This document shows, in pieces, positions 16,508 through 25,036 of a stretch of 33,578 nucleotides of DNA (within the stretch, counting starts at the first letter, position 1; each line of letters opens with the position of its first letter). The notes beneath the pieces are model-generated. The model did no database searches. It saw nothing but the letters and a program-made list of their open reading frames with translations, and was not told the origin of the DNA. The translations under genes and the position numbers were made by a program. The stretch is taken from assembly GCA_964546105.1 (NCBI GenBank), contig CAZJIP010000004.1, positions 3,633-37,210 of the forward strand, in the 5' to 3' direction. This stretch comes from an uncultured Methanomassiliicoccales archaeon. Its GTDB lineage: Archaea > Thermoplasmatota > Thermoplasmata > RBG-16-68-12.

Positions 16508-17116
16508 TCAGGCCTTCGCGGACGCGGCGATGGGCTCCTCGAGGACGGAGCGCAACGCCTTGCGGAGCTCGCGGTAGCACTTCAGGAAGTTCTCGAACTC
16601 CTTGTCCGAGATCGTCATGAGATGGACGTACTCTAGGAGTTCCTGCTTGGCCAGGTAGCTCACATCCTCGAGCTCGTTGATGCGCTCGGTCCAGGGAGAA
16701 TGCGCGTCGGGTTCCTTCATGCGCTTGATGAGGTCGACGACCTGGGAGACCACGCCCGAGTCAACCTTCGCCTTGAAGCCCAGCTTGGTGAGCGCGCCGA
16801 GCGCTTCGCGGACCTCTTCCTCCAGGACCTTCGCGCCGCCCGACTCGCCGTGCGCGAGGTGGAACATCTCCGCCGTCGCCTGGTAGTACGTCTCGATGAA
16901 GTGATCCACGCGCTCCTCCCGCGCAATCTCCACCATGTCGGCGTCCTTCAGCTTCCGGATGTGGTGGTAGATGGCCTGAGGTGTCAGCTTGAGTTCCTCC
17001 GCAATCTGCGCGACGGTCATCTCCCGAGCCCGGAGGAGGTAGATGATTCGCCGGCGCGTCTCGTCTGCGAGGAGCTGGAAGGCCTCCGGGTCCTTGATTA
17101 CCTTGAACGACCGCAT
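16508..17116 (-). CDS. ArsR-family winged-HTH transcription regulator (archaeal type)
   Basis: IKDPEAFQLLADETRRRII...EMTVAQIAEELKLTPQAIYHHIRKL. Confidence 0.9.
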   Translation of the reverse strand: MRSFKVIKDPEAFQLLADETRRRIIYLLRAREMTVAQIAEELKLTPQAIYHHIRKLKDADMVEIAREERVDHFIETYYQATAEMFHLAHGESGGAKVLEEEVREALGALTKLGFKAKVDSGVVSQVVDLIKRMKEPDAHSPWTERINELEDVSYLAKQELLEYVHLMTISDKEFENFLKCYRELRKALRSVLEEPIAASAKA

Positions 17117-17937: not shown

Positions 17938-18753
17938 TCAGGGTCTCGCGAACGCCGGAGTCGCCCTCGGATTCCCGTACGAGAAATCCTCGAGGTCCCT
18001 CCGGGGGACAGGGGCCACGATCCGCGACACCATCCCATGCAGGGAGTACGGGAGGCGAATGAGCCGCATCTCCCCCGACGTGACCCATTCGTCCAAGGCA
18101 AACCGCTTCCCGTACCGCCGCGCGATCCGCGTCCGCTCGCCCTTGGTCAGGGCGTAGGCATCCGCATCGAGCACGTGCACGTGGAAACCGCGACCCGAGT
18201 AGACCACGGACAGCTGGGACCACTCGCGCGACAGGAGATCGTGGAGTTCGGCGGCCTGTCGCCGCGTCTCCTCGAACTCCCAATCGCAGAAGGACAGCCC
18301 CTGATGGCGGCGCATCTTCTCCTCAATGTCCCCGTGGATCGGGCAGTCCAGGTTCTCGGGATCCAGATCGAAGGCGAGCTCCTGCCCCCGGAGCCACCGA
18401 CTGCGCCAGGGATGAGCGTAGTCCAGGCCGGCCCGCCGTGCCTGCTCGACCGACGCGTACGCGTTCCGGTCGTAGTAGACGCCCTCGGGCAGGTACTTCA
18501 GCAGATAGGGCCGGAGGTCCCGGACGGTCCGGGCGTCCTCGACGAGGAGGGAGATGTTCTTCAACGAGCGATACCGGCGGGGATAGATGCCCGAGTGGCG
18601 GCCGAGGATGAGGGCGAAGATCCGCTCGCCCGGAAAGGAAGCGAACCATCGCTCCGCGGCCTCATAGTCCATGAGCCGTGCGTAGAACCGCCGCCGCTGC
18701 GCGAGGTTGGAAGCCCGAAGGCCGTCGGGAAGTTCGTATCGGACCCGGACCAC
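17938..18753 (-). CDS. Archaeo-eukaryotic primase small-subunit-like protein (PriS-like AEP), stand-alone
   Basis: AEP motifs QELAFDLD (I), VYSGRGFHVHV (II) and RLIRLPYSLHG, with a CPIH...SFC putative zinc knuckle. Only 271 aa, with no priL adjacent. Confidence 0.82.
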   Translation of the reverse strand: MVRVRYELPDGLRASNLAQRRRFYARLMDYEAAERWFASFPGERIFALILGRHSGIYPRRYRSLKNISLLVEDARTVRDLRPYLLKYLPEGVYYDRNAYASVEQARRAGLDYAHPWRSRWLRGQELAFDLDPENLDCPIHGDIEEKMRRHQGLSFCDWEFEETRRQAAELHDLLSREWSQLSVVYSGRGFHVHVLDADAYALTKGERTRIARRYGKRFALDEWVTSGEMRLIRLPYSLHGMVSRIVAPVPRRDLEDFSYGNPRATPAFARP

Positions 18754-18898: not shown

Positions 18899-19333
18899 AT
18901 GGGATTGCCCGGCTTCGTGGCCTCCGTGGTATCCGGCATTACCGCCGCGGCGGGCTGGGTCTCCCATCGCATCCATTCCTTCAGCGTCACCCCACGCACA
19001 TGGACCTGCCTCGAGTGCCAAGTCCCCAACGAGCTCGATCGGGACACGTGCTGGAGCTGCGGCGCCGGCTACGGGGAAGATCCCCTCTATCCGAGCCACA
19101 TCCCTTTGAACCGCCGCTGGATCTGCCCGTCCTGCGCGGTGTGGAACGGGATCGCCCGAACGGACTGCTGGCGCTGCGGAAGCCTCCGAACAGACCCGCT
19201 TTTGCCATGTCCCCCTAGTGCAGCTCAGGTGCCTCTTCCAGGAAGTCCCGTTCCCGCAGCTCGCGGCGCTTCCAGCCCTCGAGCTCCCCCACGAAGTAGG
19301 GAAGGAGCCGCAACGAGACGTAGGAATTCATGA
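18899..19333 (+). CDS. Protein with two RanBP2-type (NZF) zinc fingers
   Basis: WTCLECQVPNELDRDTCWSC and WICPSCAVWNGIARTDCWRC both fit W-x-C-x2-C-x3-N-x6-C-x2-C exactly. The 3' end overlaps the convergent gene by 119 nt. Confidence 0.75.
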   Translation: MGLPGFVASVVSGITAAAGWVSHRIHSFSVTPRTWTCLECQVPNELDRDTCWSCGAGYGEDPLYPSHIPLNRRWICPSCAVWNGIARTDCWRCGSLRTDPLLPCPPSAAQVPLPGSPVPAARGASSPRAPPRSREGAATRRRNS

Positions 19334-19581: not shown

Positions 19582-20217
19582 GTGGTTGCCGTCGACCCCG
19601 ACCTCCTAGCTGTATTCGTCGTCGCGGGGGTCCTCATCGCCTGGTACCTCGTCGGCAGCATACGGAACCGACGTCTGGCTCGGCGAATCGCCAACGAGAT
19701 GCGGGACAGCCTGCTGGCCCTCGGCGGCACGTCGAAGGTTCATCCGTTCGGCACGACCGCGTTCCGGATGACGACGCAGGATGCGAAACCGCCCTTCCGC
19801 GACATCTCGGTCGTCGTGACCCTGCTGCCGCGGGAAATGCCCTTCAACTGGGCTATCGGGATCGCGCAGGGCCGCCGCGACACGGCGGTCGTGGAAGCCT
19901 CCCTCCGCCGATCGCCCCGGGCCGGATTCGAACTCGTGGACCCTGGGAGTCGCGTCGGCCGGAGGCGCAAGCGGGCGGTTTCCACTTGGTCCGCCATCAC
20001 CGTCGCGGGACTGGAGCGTCTCCTGCGCGCCAAGGACGAGAGGACCGCGAAGGCCCTGCTCGAGGCCCTCGAGCCGAGCGCCCTAGCGGCCATTTCGGCT
20101 CTCCATGTGACCGCAGGGAGCGAGCCCGGCATCGCGGCTTCCCTCGCCCTCGAGCAGGGCAACGTCTCGATGCTGATGTCGGCCATCCAGGGCCTCGCCG
20201 AACGCATGGCCGTCTAG
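19582..20217 (+). CDS. N-terminally membrane-anchored hypothetical protein, possible remote DUF1682/CCDC47 homolog
   Basis: TM segment LLAVFVVAGVLIAWYLVG followed by SIRNRRLARRI, then an alpha/beta domain with VVVTLLPREMPFNWAIGIAQGRRDTAVV. Confidence 0.8.
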   Translation: MVAVDPDLLAVFVVAGVLIAWYLVGSIRNRRLARRIANEMRDSLLALGGTSKVHPFGTTAFRMTTQDAKPPFRDISVVVTLLPREMPFNWAIGIAQGRRDTAVVEASLRRSPRAGFELVDPGSRVGRRRKRAVSTWSAITVAGLERLLRAKDERTAKALLEALEPSALAAISALHVTAGSEPGIAASLALEQGNVSMLMSAIQGLAERMAV

Positions 20218-20702
20218 TGACAACGGCTTCCCGCCAGCGCAGGGGGGAGCTCATCGAGCCCCGACGCATCCCCGCTGGCCATGAACTTCATCGTCAAGTT
20301 GCGCTGGGTCTCCTCGCAGCGATACGCAACATAGACCACCCGGAGGTGCTTGTTCCGGAAGAGGCCCGCCCGCATCCCGCCGTGGAGGAGAGAGCCGGGA
20401 TGACCGCCGACCTTGAAGGAGCTCTCCCGGGCGCCCTCGAGGAGGGGAGGACGGAGGGCTCCCCTCGCCGCGCGCACGTCGAACTCCATCGCGCGCTTCG
20501 CACTCTCGTCGATGAGGAACGCCGTGGCTTGCCCCTGCTGGGCCCACCGCACGCCGTTGTACGCGATCGTGTAGTCGATCTCGGTGGGGTTGCGTCCGAT
20601 GCGCACGTCCCAGTTCCCGGGAAGGCGGAGCACGAGGAAGTTGGTTGGCCCCAGGACGAAATGGGTGGCCGCCAGGAGGTGGTCCCGAACGGCCTCCGTC
20701 AT
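20214..20702 (-). CDS. Conserved-looking hypothetical soluble protein, 162 aa
   Basis: True start is the ATG at 20702 (MTEAVRDH), in ATGA overlap with the ATPase stop. Beta-rich pattern, YRCEET motif and C-terminal RCH. Confidence 0.78.
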   Translation of the reverse strand: MTEAVRDHLLAATHFVLGPTNFLVLRLPGNWDVRIGRNPTEIDYTIAYNGVRWAQQGQATAFLIDESAKRAMEFDVRAARGALRPPLLEGARESSFKVGGHPGSLLHGGMRAGLFRNKHLRVVYVAYRCEETQRNLTMKFMASGDASGLDELPPALAGSRCH

Positions 20703-21733
20703 GCCACAGCCGCCGGCGCCGGGGCGAAGGCCGGCACGTAGTCCATCATGTCGTGCGACACCCGGGCCACCATGTCGGTACCGGTGACCTCGGAGGGGTA
20801 CAGGGGGATGTAGGCCGCTACGAGGGGGCCGAGGTCTCGATAGAGCAGCTGCATGTACCCGAGCTGTTCCTGGTACTTGTTCGCCAGGTACTCTCCCGCC
20901 CCCTCCATCTGCGCGACCTCCGGACGGAGGATCTCGTTCACAATCACGCCGCCGACCGGGATGTTGAACTTCCCGACCATCCCGATGAATCGGCGGACGA
21001 CCGCAATCGGCAAGCCCAGGGGGAGGGTCACGAAGAAGAACGCCGTGCGTTCGGGGTCGATCAGGATCTCCTTCGCCTTCATGAACCGCTCGTTCATAGA
21101 GATCAGGTCGGCCATGAGCGGGTCCTTCTTGACCTCCTCCATCATCCGTTCCTTGCGGAACGAGAGCTGGACCCGGAGGGAGAGGGCCTCCCGGCGCGAA
21201 TCGATCATCCGGTTGAGCCAGAGCCCGTAAATCTTGCTCAGCCCGATCAGTCGGACGGCGTTCGCGACCGCGGCGGTGTCGAAGATCACGCGGTCGTACG
21301 ACTCCCCCTCCGCGAGGATGTAGTCCACCATCCGATCGAACATGGCGCTTTCTTCGAAGGCGGGGTTCGTCGTCGCGATCTCGATGAAGGGTCGGGCATC
21401 CAGGGGGATGTCCGCCCACTTGAGGAACTCCTTCACGCGGCCCTTGATGGAGTCGCGATACTTCTCGACGACCTCGGTCGTCTCCACCTCGACCGCGTGG
21501 ACGCCGTTCGCCCCCTTCACGGGACGGACCCGGCCGCCGGAGAGGTCCTGGCCGAACAGGCTCGACAGCGAGTGGACCGGATTCAGCGATGCCAGGAGGA
21601 CCTTCTCCCCGCTCGACGCGTAGTGGTAGGCGAGGCCTGCTGCGGAGACCGTCTTGCCGACGCCCCCCTTGCCGCCCGTGAAGATGTACCGCAACTTCGG
21701 CCGTTCGCGCAACAGGTCGGTTAGCTTAGTCAT
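20699..21733 (-). CDS. Get3/TRC40/ArsA-family ATPase 2 (degenerate switch motifs)
   Basis: Deviant Walker A GKGGVGKT, switch I SLNPVHSL, switch II FDTAAVAN and VIVN. Start ATG at 21733 with a GAGGTG RBS. Confidence 0.9.
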   Translation of the reverse strand: MTKLTDLLRERPKLRYIFTGGKGGVGKTVSAAGLAYHYASSGEKVLLASLNPVHSLSSLFGQDLSGGRVRPVKGANGVHAVEVETTEVVEKYRDSIKGRVKEFLKWADIPLDARPFIEIATTNPAFEESAMFDRMVDYILAEGESYDRVIFDTAAVANAVRLIGLSKIYGLWLNRMIDSRREALSLRVQLSFRKERMMEEVKKDPLMADLISMNERFMKAKEILIDPERTAFFFVTLPLGLPIAVVRRFIGMVGKFNIPVGGVIVNEILRPEVAQMEGAGEYLANKYQEQLGYMQLLYRDLGPLVAAYIPLYPSEVTGTDMVARVSHDMMDYVPAFAPAPAAVA

Positions 21734-21744
21734 GCTCCCCCACC

Positions 21745-22734
21745 TCACAGGCCCGGACCGTGCATGAGGTCCTCGGAGACGCGGGCGATCATGTCGAGGC
21801 CACGTGGCTCCCGGGGGTACATCGGGAGGACGGCCACCACCTTGGAACCGAATTTGGACTTGATCACGTCCATGTACTTCTGCTGCATCTCGGCGCGGTT
21901 CCGGAGAAACGCCGCGGCCTCGCCCTTCGCCGCGAGGAGTTCTGGCGGGTAGACCTGGTTCACGATGAGACCGGCCATTTGCAGGCCGAGGGAATCGAAC
22001 ATCTGCAGGGCGCGCTCCGTGTCCAAGATGGCCATCCTCTCGGGGATCAGGACCATGAAGAACGCGGTGCGCTTCTGGTCGACCATGAGGTCCGTGAAGC
22101 GGGTGATCTTGCTCTGGATGTCGCCGAGCTCCCGCAGCACCTCGTCCTCGGAGACCTTCTGCCCCTTGAGGGTGGCGGCCACGGCCTCATACTCCTGCGC
22201 CTTCTCGCGCGCCTCGGTGATTTTGCCGACCCACTTGCTGAGGATCTCCGCCATGGCGATCATCCGGACGCCGTGGCCGAACGGCGGCATGTCGAAGACG
22301 TAGAGGTCATGGCCGCTCGTTGACACGAGGTCCGCCATCGCGTCGTAGGTGGCCGACTCGTACATCGCTGGCTCCGCGGACGTGGAGTCGATGTATTCCT
22401 CGATCTCCGGCGGCAGCTCCGAGAGGCCGTACATCGTGAGGATCTTCTGCTTGACCTCAGCCTGGTAGTCTGCGACCCGCTTGTCCGCATCGATCTCGAC
22501 CACGTCGAGGTTCGGGATCACGGTCACCTGTCCCTTGCCGAAGATGTCCCGGTCGAAGATGTCGCTCAGGCTCGCCTGCGGGTCCGTCGAGAAGCAGAGG
22601 ACCTTCTGATGCCGCTTGGCGGCCATGTAGTGGCTCAGCCCGGCGCTGCAGGTCGTCTTGCCGAGCCCTCCTTTTCCGGCGAAGATGACGATGCCCTTGT
22701 CTCCCTTCTTCTCGAAGTAGGATGCGAGGCCCAT
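21745..22734 (-). CDS. Get3/TRC40/ArsA-family ATPase 1
   Basis: Motifs GKGGLGKTT, STDPQASLSD, FDMPPFGH, VLIPERMA and LIVNQV. Met-rich. Start ATG at 22734. Confidence 0.92.
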   Translation of the reverse strand: MGLASYFEKKGDKGIVIFAGKGGLGKTTCSAGLSHYMAAKRHQKVLCFSTDPQASLSDIFDRDIFGKGQVTVIPNLDVVEIDADKRVADYQAEVKQKILTMYGLSELPPEIEEYIDSTSAEPAMYESATYDAMADLVSTSGHDLYVFDMPPFGHGVRMIAMAEILSKWVGKITEAREKAQEYEAVAATLKGQKVSEDEVLRELGDIQSKITRFTDLMVDQKRTAFFMVLIPERMAILDTERALQMFDSLGLQMAGLIVNQVYPPELLAAKGEAAAFLRNRAEMQQKYMDVIKSKFGSKVVAVLPMYPREPRGLDMIARVSEDLMHGPGL

Positions 22735-22742
22735 CGACTCCC

Positions 22743-23033
22743 TCAAAAGACCTGGTCCGTGAAGTCCCGCTCGCGGAACACGCGCTGCTTCCAGCTCTTG
22801 ATGTTCGGCACCGCGTACGGCAGGATCCGGAGCGAGTAGTACGGCGGGATGACGGGGACGCCGAGCATGTCGCCGAGGGTGATGAACATGAAGAGGTGCT
22901 CCAGGTACATTCGGGTTCTCAGTGCTGCGGTTACGTGGCCGTGGGCCGCCATTCCGTACAGCACACCCTTCGCGGCGGTCGCGACCTTCCGACCCCGACC
23001 CTTCGACCTGCCGCGCCCCTTCGAATCAGACAT
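22743..23033 (-). CDS. Small CstA/ArsA-associated protein ('cory-CC-star'-like), paralog 1
   Basis: EHLFMFITLGDMLGVPVIPPYYSLRILPY...WKQRVFRERDF. Lies between cstA and the ATPases. Alternative start at 23054. A GAAAGCTTTTT promoter-like box is at about 23073-23083 (minus strand). Confidence 0.82.
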   Translation of the reverse strand: MSDSKGRGRSKGRGRKVATAAKGVLYGMAAHGHVTAALRTRMYLEHLFMFITLGDMLGVPVIPPYYSLRILPYAVPNIKSWKQRVFRERDFTDQVF

Positions 23034-23096
23034 CTGGCGACCGCTCCCTGTCATGGGATGCGTGCCTGGCTCAAAAAGCTTTCAGGCAGACGCTGA

Positions 23097-24902
23097 CTAC
23101 TTCTCCGGCGTGCCTCCGTCCGCTGCCGCCGGCGCCTTCGCCCGGGCCGCCGCCAAGCTCGTGCGGTAGCTCTGGAACAGGCGGAACGCCATCAACAGCC
23201 CGATCAAGAACAGGATCGCGCCAACGGCGACGAACACCGCGTTGACCGTCAGAGCGGCCCATGCGTAGGCCGAGACGTTGATCGGGGCCCGTACGTTGCG
23301 CAAGATCCAGTTGACCGGATCCGGCCTCGCCGCGGAGAACCGGACGCCCCCGAGGTAGTTCGCCACCGAATAGAGGAATGAGTACGTCTGCCAGAGCAAC
23401 GCCGCGAGGGTCGTCACGATCATGAAGATGGCTGGGATCAGCGAGTACCGCGAGGGAGCACGCGCCCGCGTGAGGTGAATCGTGATCAGCATGATCGCAA
23501 GGCCTGCGAGGAGCTGATTCGCTCCGCCGAAGTACAACCACAGGGCCCACCAGCTACCCGAGATCGCGAAGAGCCAGGGCACCACGAGCCCTACGATCGT
23601 GGACGTGTGCTTGTTCGCAAGGATGCGGAACCGGCCCTCGCTCCAAGTTTCCTGGGCGACCAATCGGAAGAAACGGGTGACCAACGCCTGGACGGTGATC
23701 GCGTAGATCACGAGGACGAGCCCGAAGAACGTCGTCAGCACGGCATTCGTCAAGCCGCCAAGGAAAGGGCTGGTGAGCGCCACGGCGCCGTTGACCCAGG
23801 AGAAGAAGTTCGCCCTCGCCGGGTCCAACACGAAGCTCGGAGCGAGCACCATGTAGGCGGCCAGGGAGGCCAGCGCGAGGAGGCCCTCGGAGAGCATGGC
23901 TCCACCGCCGACGGGCAAGGCATCGGTTTCGATGTCGAGCTGCTTCGACGACGAGGAGCTGCTGACCAGACTGTGCCAGCCCGAGATCGAGCCGCAGGCG
24001 ATGGCGACGAAGAGGATGGGCCACAGGGGTCCGATCGTGCTGTCGAAGAACGTCGTGAAGGCGGGCAACTGAACCGTCAGGTTGGTGAACGGCGACACGA
24101 GGGCACCGATCAAGATGAAGATAATGGCCGCGTACGCCGGGTAGAACGCGAGGTAGTTCGTCGGCTGGATGAAGCTCGGCGTTGGGAGGACGGCGGCCAA
24201 GTACAGGAACCCGAGGACGACCGCGGCCCAAATCGCGACGTTCCAAGCGCCGTAGGAGAGCGAAACCGGGAACAGGACACCCAAGTAGATGCTGAGTACC
24301 ACGAGGAGCAGCCCGATCCCCGTCACGGCGAAGACGTTCACCTTGTAGCGGTAGAGGAGCTGGCCACAGAGCACACCGGCCGCGAAGATCCCGAGCGTGG
24401 CGACGAACGTGCCAGGGAAGAGGTTCCAGAATGTGGCAATCAGCGCGATGAAGGTGGCCGAGATGATGATGAGGTAGAACAGGACGAAAGCGAGCAGGTT
24501 CCGTCGGCCCGAGGCCCCCGTGAACTCGTAGGTGATGGGGCCGAAGGAGCGACCCTCGTTGCGCACCGACAGCATCATCGCACCGTAGTCCTGCATCCAC
24601 CCGATGAAGAAATTCCCGCCAATGATCCACAGGAGCGCGGGAAGCCAACCGAACGTGACCCCAATGAACGGTCCAAGGATCGGGCCCAAAGCCGCGACGC
24701 TCTTGAACTGGTATCCCCAGAGCACGTAGCGACTCACCGGGAAGAACTCCACCCCATCCATGTACATGTGCGCGGGAGTCGCCCGCTTCGCGTCGCTCTT
24801 CCACACATGGCGGTCAACCCACTTGCCGTAGCCCATGTACGCGATCAGGTAGGCCACGATCGTGACGACAACCCACAGAAACGGCGTGTCCAGTAGGCCC
24901 AT
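23097..24902 (-). CDS. cstA: Carbon starvation CstA family membrane transporter (divergent)
   Basis: Motifs TPAHMYMDGVEFFP, GPILGP, FGWLPALLWI, PLWPILFVAIACGSISGWHSL, GGAMLSEG and FGGANQLLA, with many TM helices. Start ATG at 24902 with a GGGAGG RBS. Confidence 0.92.
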   Translation of the reverse strand: MGLLDTPFLWVVVTIVAYLIAYMGYGKWVDRHVWKSDAKRATPAHMYMDGVEFFPVSRYVLWGYQFKSVAALGPILGPFIGVTFGWLPALLWIIGGNFFIGWMQDYGAMMLSVRNEGRSFGPITYEFTGASGRRNLLAFVLFYLIIISATFIALIATFWNLFPGTFVATLGIFAAGVLCGQLLYRYKVNVFAVTGIGLLLVVLSIYLGVLFPVSLSYGAWNVAIWAAVVLGFLYLAAVLPTPSFIQPTNYLAFYPAYAAIIFILIGALVSPFTNLTVQLPAFTTFFDSTIGPLWPILFVAIACGSISGWHSLVSSSSSSKQLDIETDALPVGGGAMLSEGLLALASLAAYMVLAPSFVLDPARANFFSWVNGAVALTSPFLGGLTNAVLTTFFGLVLVIYAITVQALVTRFFRLVAQETWSEGRFRILANKHTSTIVGLVVPWLFAISGSWWALWLYFGGANQLLAGLAIMLITIHLTRARAPSRYSLIPAIFMIVTTLAALLWQTYSFLYSVANYLGGVRFSAARPDPVNWILRNVRAPINVSAYAWAALTVNAVFVAVGAILFLIGLLMAFRLFQSYRTSLAAARAKAPAAADGGTPEK

Positions 24903-25036
24903 CTTTCGCCTCCCCAATCCCGGCGAGACATCCCTGCCAGGACCCGCCGGGGTATGTCGTGTCAGGCGCTTAAATCTGTGGGGTGTGATTTACCGCGAAC
25001 GAAATCCGTATGGCGCGAGACCGCCTTGGAGGCTAC

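Follow-up and report, generated by a model that had tools for sequence, protein, structure and literature searches.

The CCDC47-like gene and its neighbours

We describe a gene for a small membrane-anchored protein on a stretch of 33,578 nucleotides of archaeal DNA (contig CAZJIP010000004.1 of assembly GCA_964546105.1, from an uncultured Methanomassiliicoccales archaeon). This whole stretch is called the window below, and coordinates are those of the window unless a locus is named. The protein is quite probably a remote homologue of the core of CCDC47, and its gene lies in a module that holds two Get3/ArsA-type ATPases, small CstX-like proteins and a CstA-family transporter. The source organism is a soil archaeon. 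The genes of the module are as follows:

19582-20217, plus strand: CCDC47-like (CstY-type) gene, GTG start, 211 amino acids
19215-19469, minus strand: small CstX-like protein A, about 84 amino acids, start uncertain by about 10 codons, divergent from the CCDC47-like gene
20214-20702, minus strand: p166, 162 amino acids, sharing 4 bases with the end of the CCDC47-like gene
20699-21748, minus strand: Get3/ArsA-type ATPase 1, 349 amino acids (PF02374, E 4e-50; TIGR00345, 177.1 bits)
21745-22746, minus strand: Get3/ArsA-type ATPase 2, 333 amino acids (PF02374, E 1.6e-66; TIGR00345, 211.3 bits)
22743-23054, minus strand: small CstX-like protein B, 103 amino acids
23097-24917, minus strand: CstA-family transporter, 606 amino acids (PF02554, E 1.1e-101)

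The open reading frame (ORF) at 19582-20217 is a real gene with a conserved product of 211 residues. The original prediction, made by eye, had quoted two stretches of its translation, and both are present. A protein sequence search yielded 198 proteins at E <= 0.01, including the window's own gene; among the 120 listed, the 119 others share 53-67% identity and are mostly 211 amino acids long. A profile of 34 relatives, with E <= 0.001 as the limit, matched 385 clusters formed at the 50% identity level; with E <= 1e-10 the number was 167, and among the 150 matches listed most have about 200-250 amino acids. The N-terminal helix is conserved among relatives, and W21, R30 and R31 are invariant across the 34 aligned sequences. 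The public gene call in the window (P0001) has 172 amino acids and covers 82% of the ORF; it appears to begin at an internal methionine and so to miss the conserved membrane helix (window 19582-19699), which may be one reason why the family escaped recognition. In searches of Pfam and NCBIfam the protein gets no family above threshold.

The module runs from CstA through small protein B, ATPase 2 and ATPase 1 to p166, all on the minus strand, and between small protein B and p166 each gene overlaps the next by 4 bases. The CCDC47-like gene converges on this row from the plus strand, and small protein A diverges from it on the minus strand. That the neighbours are Get3-like ATPases, as the original prediction held, is borne out by their PF02374 scores and by TIGR00345, whose curated cut-off of 135 bits both exceed, placing them in the ArsA/Get3 family. 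The window's own genome yielded no other full ArsA/Get3 genes and no second CstA gene, and CstA is the only multipass protein of the module. Small proteins A and B are mutual paralogues with a strongly conserved core that is hydrophobic and proline-rich, followed by W-K-R-R and R-E-R-D. They match NCBIfam NF041419 ('cory-CC-star') below its cut-off (E 2.5e-8 for protein A). A relationship to E. coli YbdD (PF04328) was also considered and is undetectable, with an hhalign probability of 0.24% and no Pfam match at E <= 10. p166 has no family match in Pfam or NCBIfam; it always ends in Cys-His, carries a second conserved cysteine, and its gene sits immediately downstream of ATPase 1 in the operon.

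Upstream of the module lie genes for a DNA primase small-subunit-like protein (17938-18753, minus strand), a protein with two RanBP-type zinc ribbons (18899-19333, plus strand) and an ArsR-family regulator (16508-17116, minus strand). Most loci of the same genus also carry the regulator and zinc-ribbon genes, probably as a matter of local synteny only. A strong AT skew (0.20-0.25) runs across the CstA gene (23000-25000) and probably reflects the codon bias of a very hydrophobic minus-strand product.

Conservation of the module in archaea and bacteria

All 16 archaeal loci taken from related genomes keep the module. For bacteria, a scan with one of our family alignments (A3), limited to one genome per species, gave 165 relatives, of which 80 loci were kept; among the phyla represented are Acidobacteriota, Chloroflexota, Gemmatimonadota, Actinomycetota and Armatimonadota. 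Partner genes were counted by targeted searches, since in DNA so rich in GC the clustering of all ORFs was dominated by spurious overlapping frames. CstA was found in 79 of the 80 bacterial loci, small CstX-like proteins in 75, and the two ATPases in 69 and 68 respectively. Every partner type is held by 67/80 loci, and by 52/53 when only loci with at least 4 kb upstream and at least 3 kb downstream are counted. p166 is present in 16/16 archaeal and 0/80 bacterial loci, as judged with a hidden Markov model of the window's p166 and 16 archaeal relatives. A protein of about 141 amino acids with a Cys-x2-Cys motif is encoded just upstream of CstA in 26/80 bacterial loci (for example at L120 10694-11119, minus strand), and may belong to the module as an additional, lineage-specific member. 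One archaeal genome (G419; loci L036 and L037) has two whole-module copies on different contigs, and a third CstX-like paralogue, placed between ATPase 1 and p166, occurs in its genus.

The CCDC47-like family is mostly bacterial and patchy in archaea. Within the window's own taxonomic order (79 genomes), 24 genomes have the CCDC47-like protein, 23 an orthologue of ATPase 1 and 22 both, and the three mismatches fall at contig ends or on very short contigs. A sample of the phylum (401 genomes) held two genomes with a family match, one of them the window's own. In a bacterial class represented by 151 genomes, the protein occurs in all seven genomes that carry an ATPase-1 orthologue, and an eighth genome has the protein together with a fragment resembling ATPase 2. 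Because the presence and absence of the protein and of ATPase 1 go together, we conclude that the module is gained and lost as a unit. A Geothermarchaeales archaeon is also among the named family members; a sequence search started from its protein returned two proteins, the query included.

Divergent relatives were seen in Acidobacteriota (L130 6740-7639, L131, and L132 6992-7669), matching the family profile at E about 1e-35 outside CstA/ATPase clusters; those of L130 and L132 adjoin prephenate dehydratase and Lon protease genes. In six more genomes the match is confined to the C-terminal half of the family profile.

The linkage itself is not new, because cstA-cstX-cstY-arsA clusters were described by Castillo and Saier in 2010 (PMC2963123). 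The available text of that paper gives 26 cases of CstA with ArsA homologues of about 330 amino acids, a CstX of about 90, and a CstY of about 210 amino acids with a single membrane segment, reported there in five archaea only; it also states that cstA-arsA clusters are without arsR (PMC2963123). The association with Get3-like ATPases proposed in the original prediction is conserved across bacterial phyla and in archaea, but the module that underlies it centres on CstA and had been recognised years before.

Predicted fold and probable kinship with CCDC47

An AlphaFold2 model of the window protein, built from an archaeal alignment, is confident (predicted local distance difference test, pLDDT, 90.9; predicted template modelling score, pTM, 0.83). 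From a short N-terminus on the outside, the chain passes into a membrane helix (about residues 8-27), continues as a juxtamembrane helix as far as residue 45 and ends in an alpha/beta domain that takes up the rest; in the model a single helix of 40 residues (6-45) precedes strands and helices up to residue 210. The predicted model thus has a single membrane helix with its N-terminus outside and a cytosolic alpha/beta domain directly after it, and an arginine-rich stretch directly follows the membrane helix. A second model, of a bacterial family member, has the same layout of helix and then alpha/beta domain.

Foldseek against the PDB gave three matches at E <= 0.001, namely 7tm3_4 (9.4e-8), 9i78_4 (1.9e-6) and 6w6l_7 (2.6e-4), with the fourth-ranked match at 7.6e-3. 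The four matched entries, these three and 7tut (chain 4), are ribosome-translocon structures that hold CCDC47, and in the available text of the papers describing them Sec61 and CCDC47 are the only non-ribosomal components common to all four (PMC7505659, PMC12572126, PMC9816642, PMC11169918). The matched chains have 290-371 modelled residues and an N-terminal helix that begins near residue 135; this length and this helix start fit CCDC47 and not Sec61, so we take the chains to be CCDC47. On that assignment, CCDC47 chains are the top matches for both independent models, archaeal and bacterial, with membrane helix and domain covered alike. They superpose over 205-211 residues at 2.7-3.3 Å with about 10-12% identity, and the match ends at residue 395-396 of the CCDC47 chain.

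The sequence evidence is weak and points the same way as the fold. Among Pfam families the window protein is best matched by PF07946, that of CCDC47 (formerly DUF1682), which is also the commonest Pfam family among members (12/105 at E <= 1 and 2/105 at E <= 0.01, best 0.0056), the next commonest reaching 5/105. CCDC47 is, moreover, the sole named family among 30 language-model neighbours (rank 24, score 0.79). A search for longer, fused or eukaryotic forms with another family profile (A2) found none at E <= 10 among proteins of 441-2000 amino acids.

The likeness to CCDC47/DUF1682, which the original prediction had judged by eye, therefore stands in part. The structural comparison that it proposed, AlphaFold followed by Foldseek, came out in its favour over helix and domain, but the match to PF07946 is not significant (E 0.059) and profile searches of PDB sequences returned no CCDC47. 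We regard the protein as quite probably a remote homologue of the CCDC47 core. The alternative, that a membrane helix and a common chaperone-type alpha/beta fold were joined separately in prokaryotes and eukaryotes, is unlikely in our view: in two independent models the presumed CCDC47 chains lead the runner-up by 5-7 Z units, with nearly all residues aligned including those of the helix, and the only recurring Pfam signal is that of CCDC47, on the same helix and juxtamembrane stretch.

Our overall reading, which we hold to be somewhat better than an even bet, is that of a CstY-type membrane-tethered adaptor, remotely related to the CCDC47 core and tied to the module of CstA, CstX and Get3-type ATPases. 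Several observations weigh against it. The window protein scores 12.9 bits against PF07946, under the gathering cut-off of 27.7 bits, and the match is confined to the helix and juxtamembrane stretch (residues 11-43). When PF07946 was run against the window's own genome, the CCDC47-like gene was hit at E 0.27, and sub-threshold matches also appeared in 3/14 control genomes. Profile searches of PDB sequences from three alignments (A1, A2, A3) found no CCDC47 at E <= 10. The identity of the matched chains as CCDC47 is our reading of entry composition and residue numbering, and both structures of the family are predictions. On the side of the module, one locus with enough flanking DNA (L048) is without the ATPases, and divergent paralogues occur without the module, so the fold family is wider than the module. 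Lastly, a search of the window's own genome (completeness 82.6%) for Asterix (PF03669), the substrate-binding subunit of the PAT complex (PMC9816642), gave nothing at E <= 10.

Possible roles and comparison with known systems

From three results of our tools, namely the gene, its predicted fold match and its linkage, we infer a homology, binding partners and a function; for the last of these, no specific proposal is given better than an even chance. In the family alignment, the membrane helix is variable in sequence, with one conserved part, W-Y-x2-G-x3-N-R-R, at its cytosolic end; the other conserved positions lie in the cytosolic domain (for instance E-P-R-E/D, W90, G-R-R-D and P112). This pattern suggests an anchor plus a cytosolic interaction platform, and the predicted fold class is that of peptide-binding chaperones. 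Together with a parallel to TtfA, a mycobacterial accessory protein, these features lead us to favour a membrane-tethered adaptor: the membrane helix would tether a chaperone-like platform at the cytosolic face of the membrane, and the platform might hold or position the ATPase pair, CstX, or both, beside CstA, much as TtfA serves the transporter MmpL3. A complex prediction for ATPase 1, ATPase 2 and the CCDC47-like protein, run without controls, gave a score of 0.00 where the mark was 0.32, and says nothing either way about binding.

Three other roles were weighed against that of adaptor. Castillo and Saier proposed that the ATPases energise CstA and that CstY is a possibly non-essential auxiliary (PMC2963123). 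The ATPase pair would then act as ArsA does for ArsB, and our protein would only stabilise the assembly. The available text of their paper gives co-clustering and matching trees for CstA, CstX, CstY and the ArsA homologues of about 330 amino acids (PMC2963123), and our linkage counts agree with this. A non-essential CstY, however, fits poorly with a whole module in 52/53 full loci and with the protein in 7/7 bacterial genomes that have the ATPase-1 orthologue; an auxiliary role of this kind is a tentative option, which we find doubtful rather than probable.

A PAT-like assembly chaperone, that would guard or guide CstA during its synthesis while the Get3-type ATPases supply energy or holdase activity, is improbable. 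It would suit the role of CCDC47 as part of the PAT complex, a chaperone for multipass proteins (PMC9816642), the presence of a single multipass protein in the module and the tight gene linkage (67/80 bacterial loci, 52/53 with full flanks). It has to be reconciled, though, with the missing match to Asterix, with a membrane helix whose sequence is variable up to its cytosolic end, and with the absence of the coiled coil that binds the ribosome and Sec61.

There is little to recommend a membrane receptor like Get1/Get2, at which the two ATPases would hand over the small CstX-like proteins or some other client: the ATPases are closest in the PDB to 3zq6 and 3ug6 (177 and 157 bits), which we take to be archaeal Get3 homologues, and further from E. 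coli ArsA (93-99 bits; eukaryotic Get3 gives 47-105 bits), no further full ArsA/Get3 genes were found in the genome and two ATPases co-occur with two CstX paralogues, but the hydrophobic stretch of CstX, with Asp, Arg and several Pro, is unlike a tail anchor, and a single helix would be incapable of insertase action.

Returning to the adaptor related to CCDC47, a widespread prokaryotic family that shares the helix-plus-domain core would offer a testable origin for CCDC47, as well as a simple genetic system for probing the role of its domain. In the available text of the papers on the eukaryotic protein, CCDC47 and the PAT complex are described in eukaryotes only (PMC7505659, PMC12572126, PMC9816642), and in the literature searched on CCDC47, DUF1682 and CstY/CstX we found no statement of a CCDC47 likeness of prokaryotic proteins. 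A protein with a predicted CCDC47-like core that keeps company with two Get3-type ATPases and a CstA transporter hints at a prokaryotic root for part of the eukaryotic membrane-protein assembly machinery. As the family is mostly bacterial, its bearing on the origin of the endoplasmic reticulum (ER) can be put only conditionally. It is conceivable, though we would not count on it, that eukaryotic CCDC47 descends from a CstY-type protein that, in its work at the membrane, already had Get3-type ATPases and a multipass protein as companions. If so, one subunit of the ER machinery for multipass proteins would have a prokaryotic root that had earlier been linked with the forerunners of the GET pathway, and the CstA module would serve as a tractable model for CCDC47's globular domain.

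Compared with CCDC47, the prokaryotic protein has the same order of parts, with a membrane helix, a continuous juxtamembrane helix and an alpha/beta domain, and the same orientation, with the N-terminus outside and the domain in the cytosol (by prediction for the prokaryotic protein). It differs in being without the lumenal acidic domain, because only about 5 residues precede the helix, and without the C-terminal coiled coil that in CCDC47 contacts the ribosome and Sec61 (PMC7505659), since it ends at residue 211, right after the last helix of the domain. The partners differ as well: the ribosome and Sec61 for CCDC47, and CstA, CstX and Get3-type ATPases here.

Get1/Get2 (WRB/CAML), the membrane receptor for Get3, offers a possible functional parallel, since the membrane protein here is encoded alongside ATPases of the Get3 type. 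Several membrane helices and insertase activity set Get1/Get2 apart, and their fold is unrelated to that of the CCDC47-like protein. With the type III secretion chaperones and the YbjN-type peptide-binding chaperones (TY-Chap), which are soluble, of about 130 amino acids and without a membrane helix, the likeness is one of fold class only. The nearest prokaryotic structure is PDB 6t84, that of TtfA, the trehalose monomycolate transport factor A of mycobacteria; this accessory protein occurs in a complex with a multipass transporter (PMC6593404). TtfA differs in its transporter and in its gene neighbourhood and gave no sequence match in the profile searches of PDB sequences (A1, A2, A3); a literature search listed no paper on both TtfA and CCDC47.

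The closest counterpart is the CstY of Castillo and Saier (PMC2963123). Our protein shares with it the length of about 210 amino acids, the one membrane segment and the company of cstA, a small cstX and single-domain ArsA homologues of about 330 amino acids, and is, compared by description, probably the same protein. In the available text of that paper CstY is given for five archaea and its fold is not discussed, whereas the family described here is mainly bacterial. The predicted models would also supply a structural identity for the CstY partner in the CstA/Get3-like ATPase module reported in 2010.
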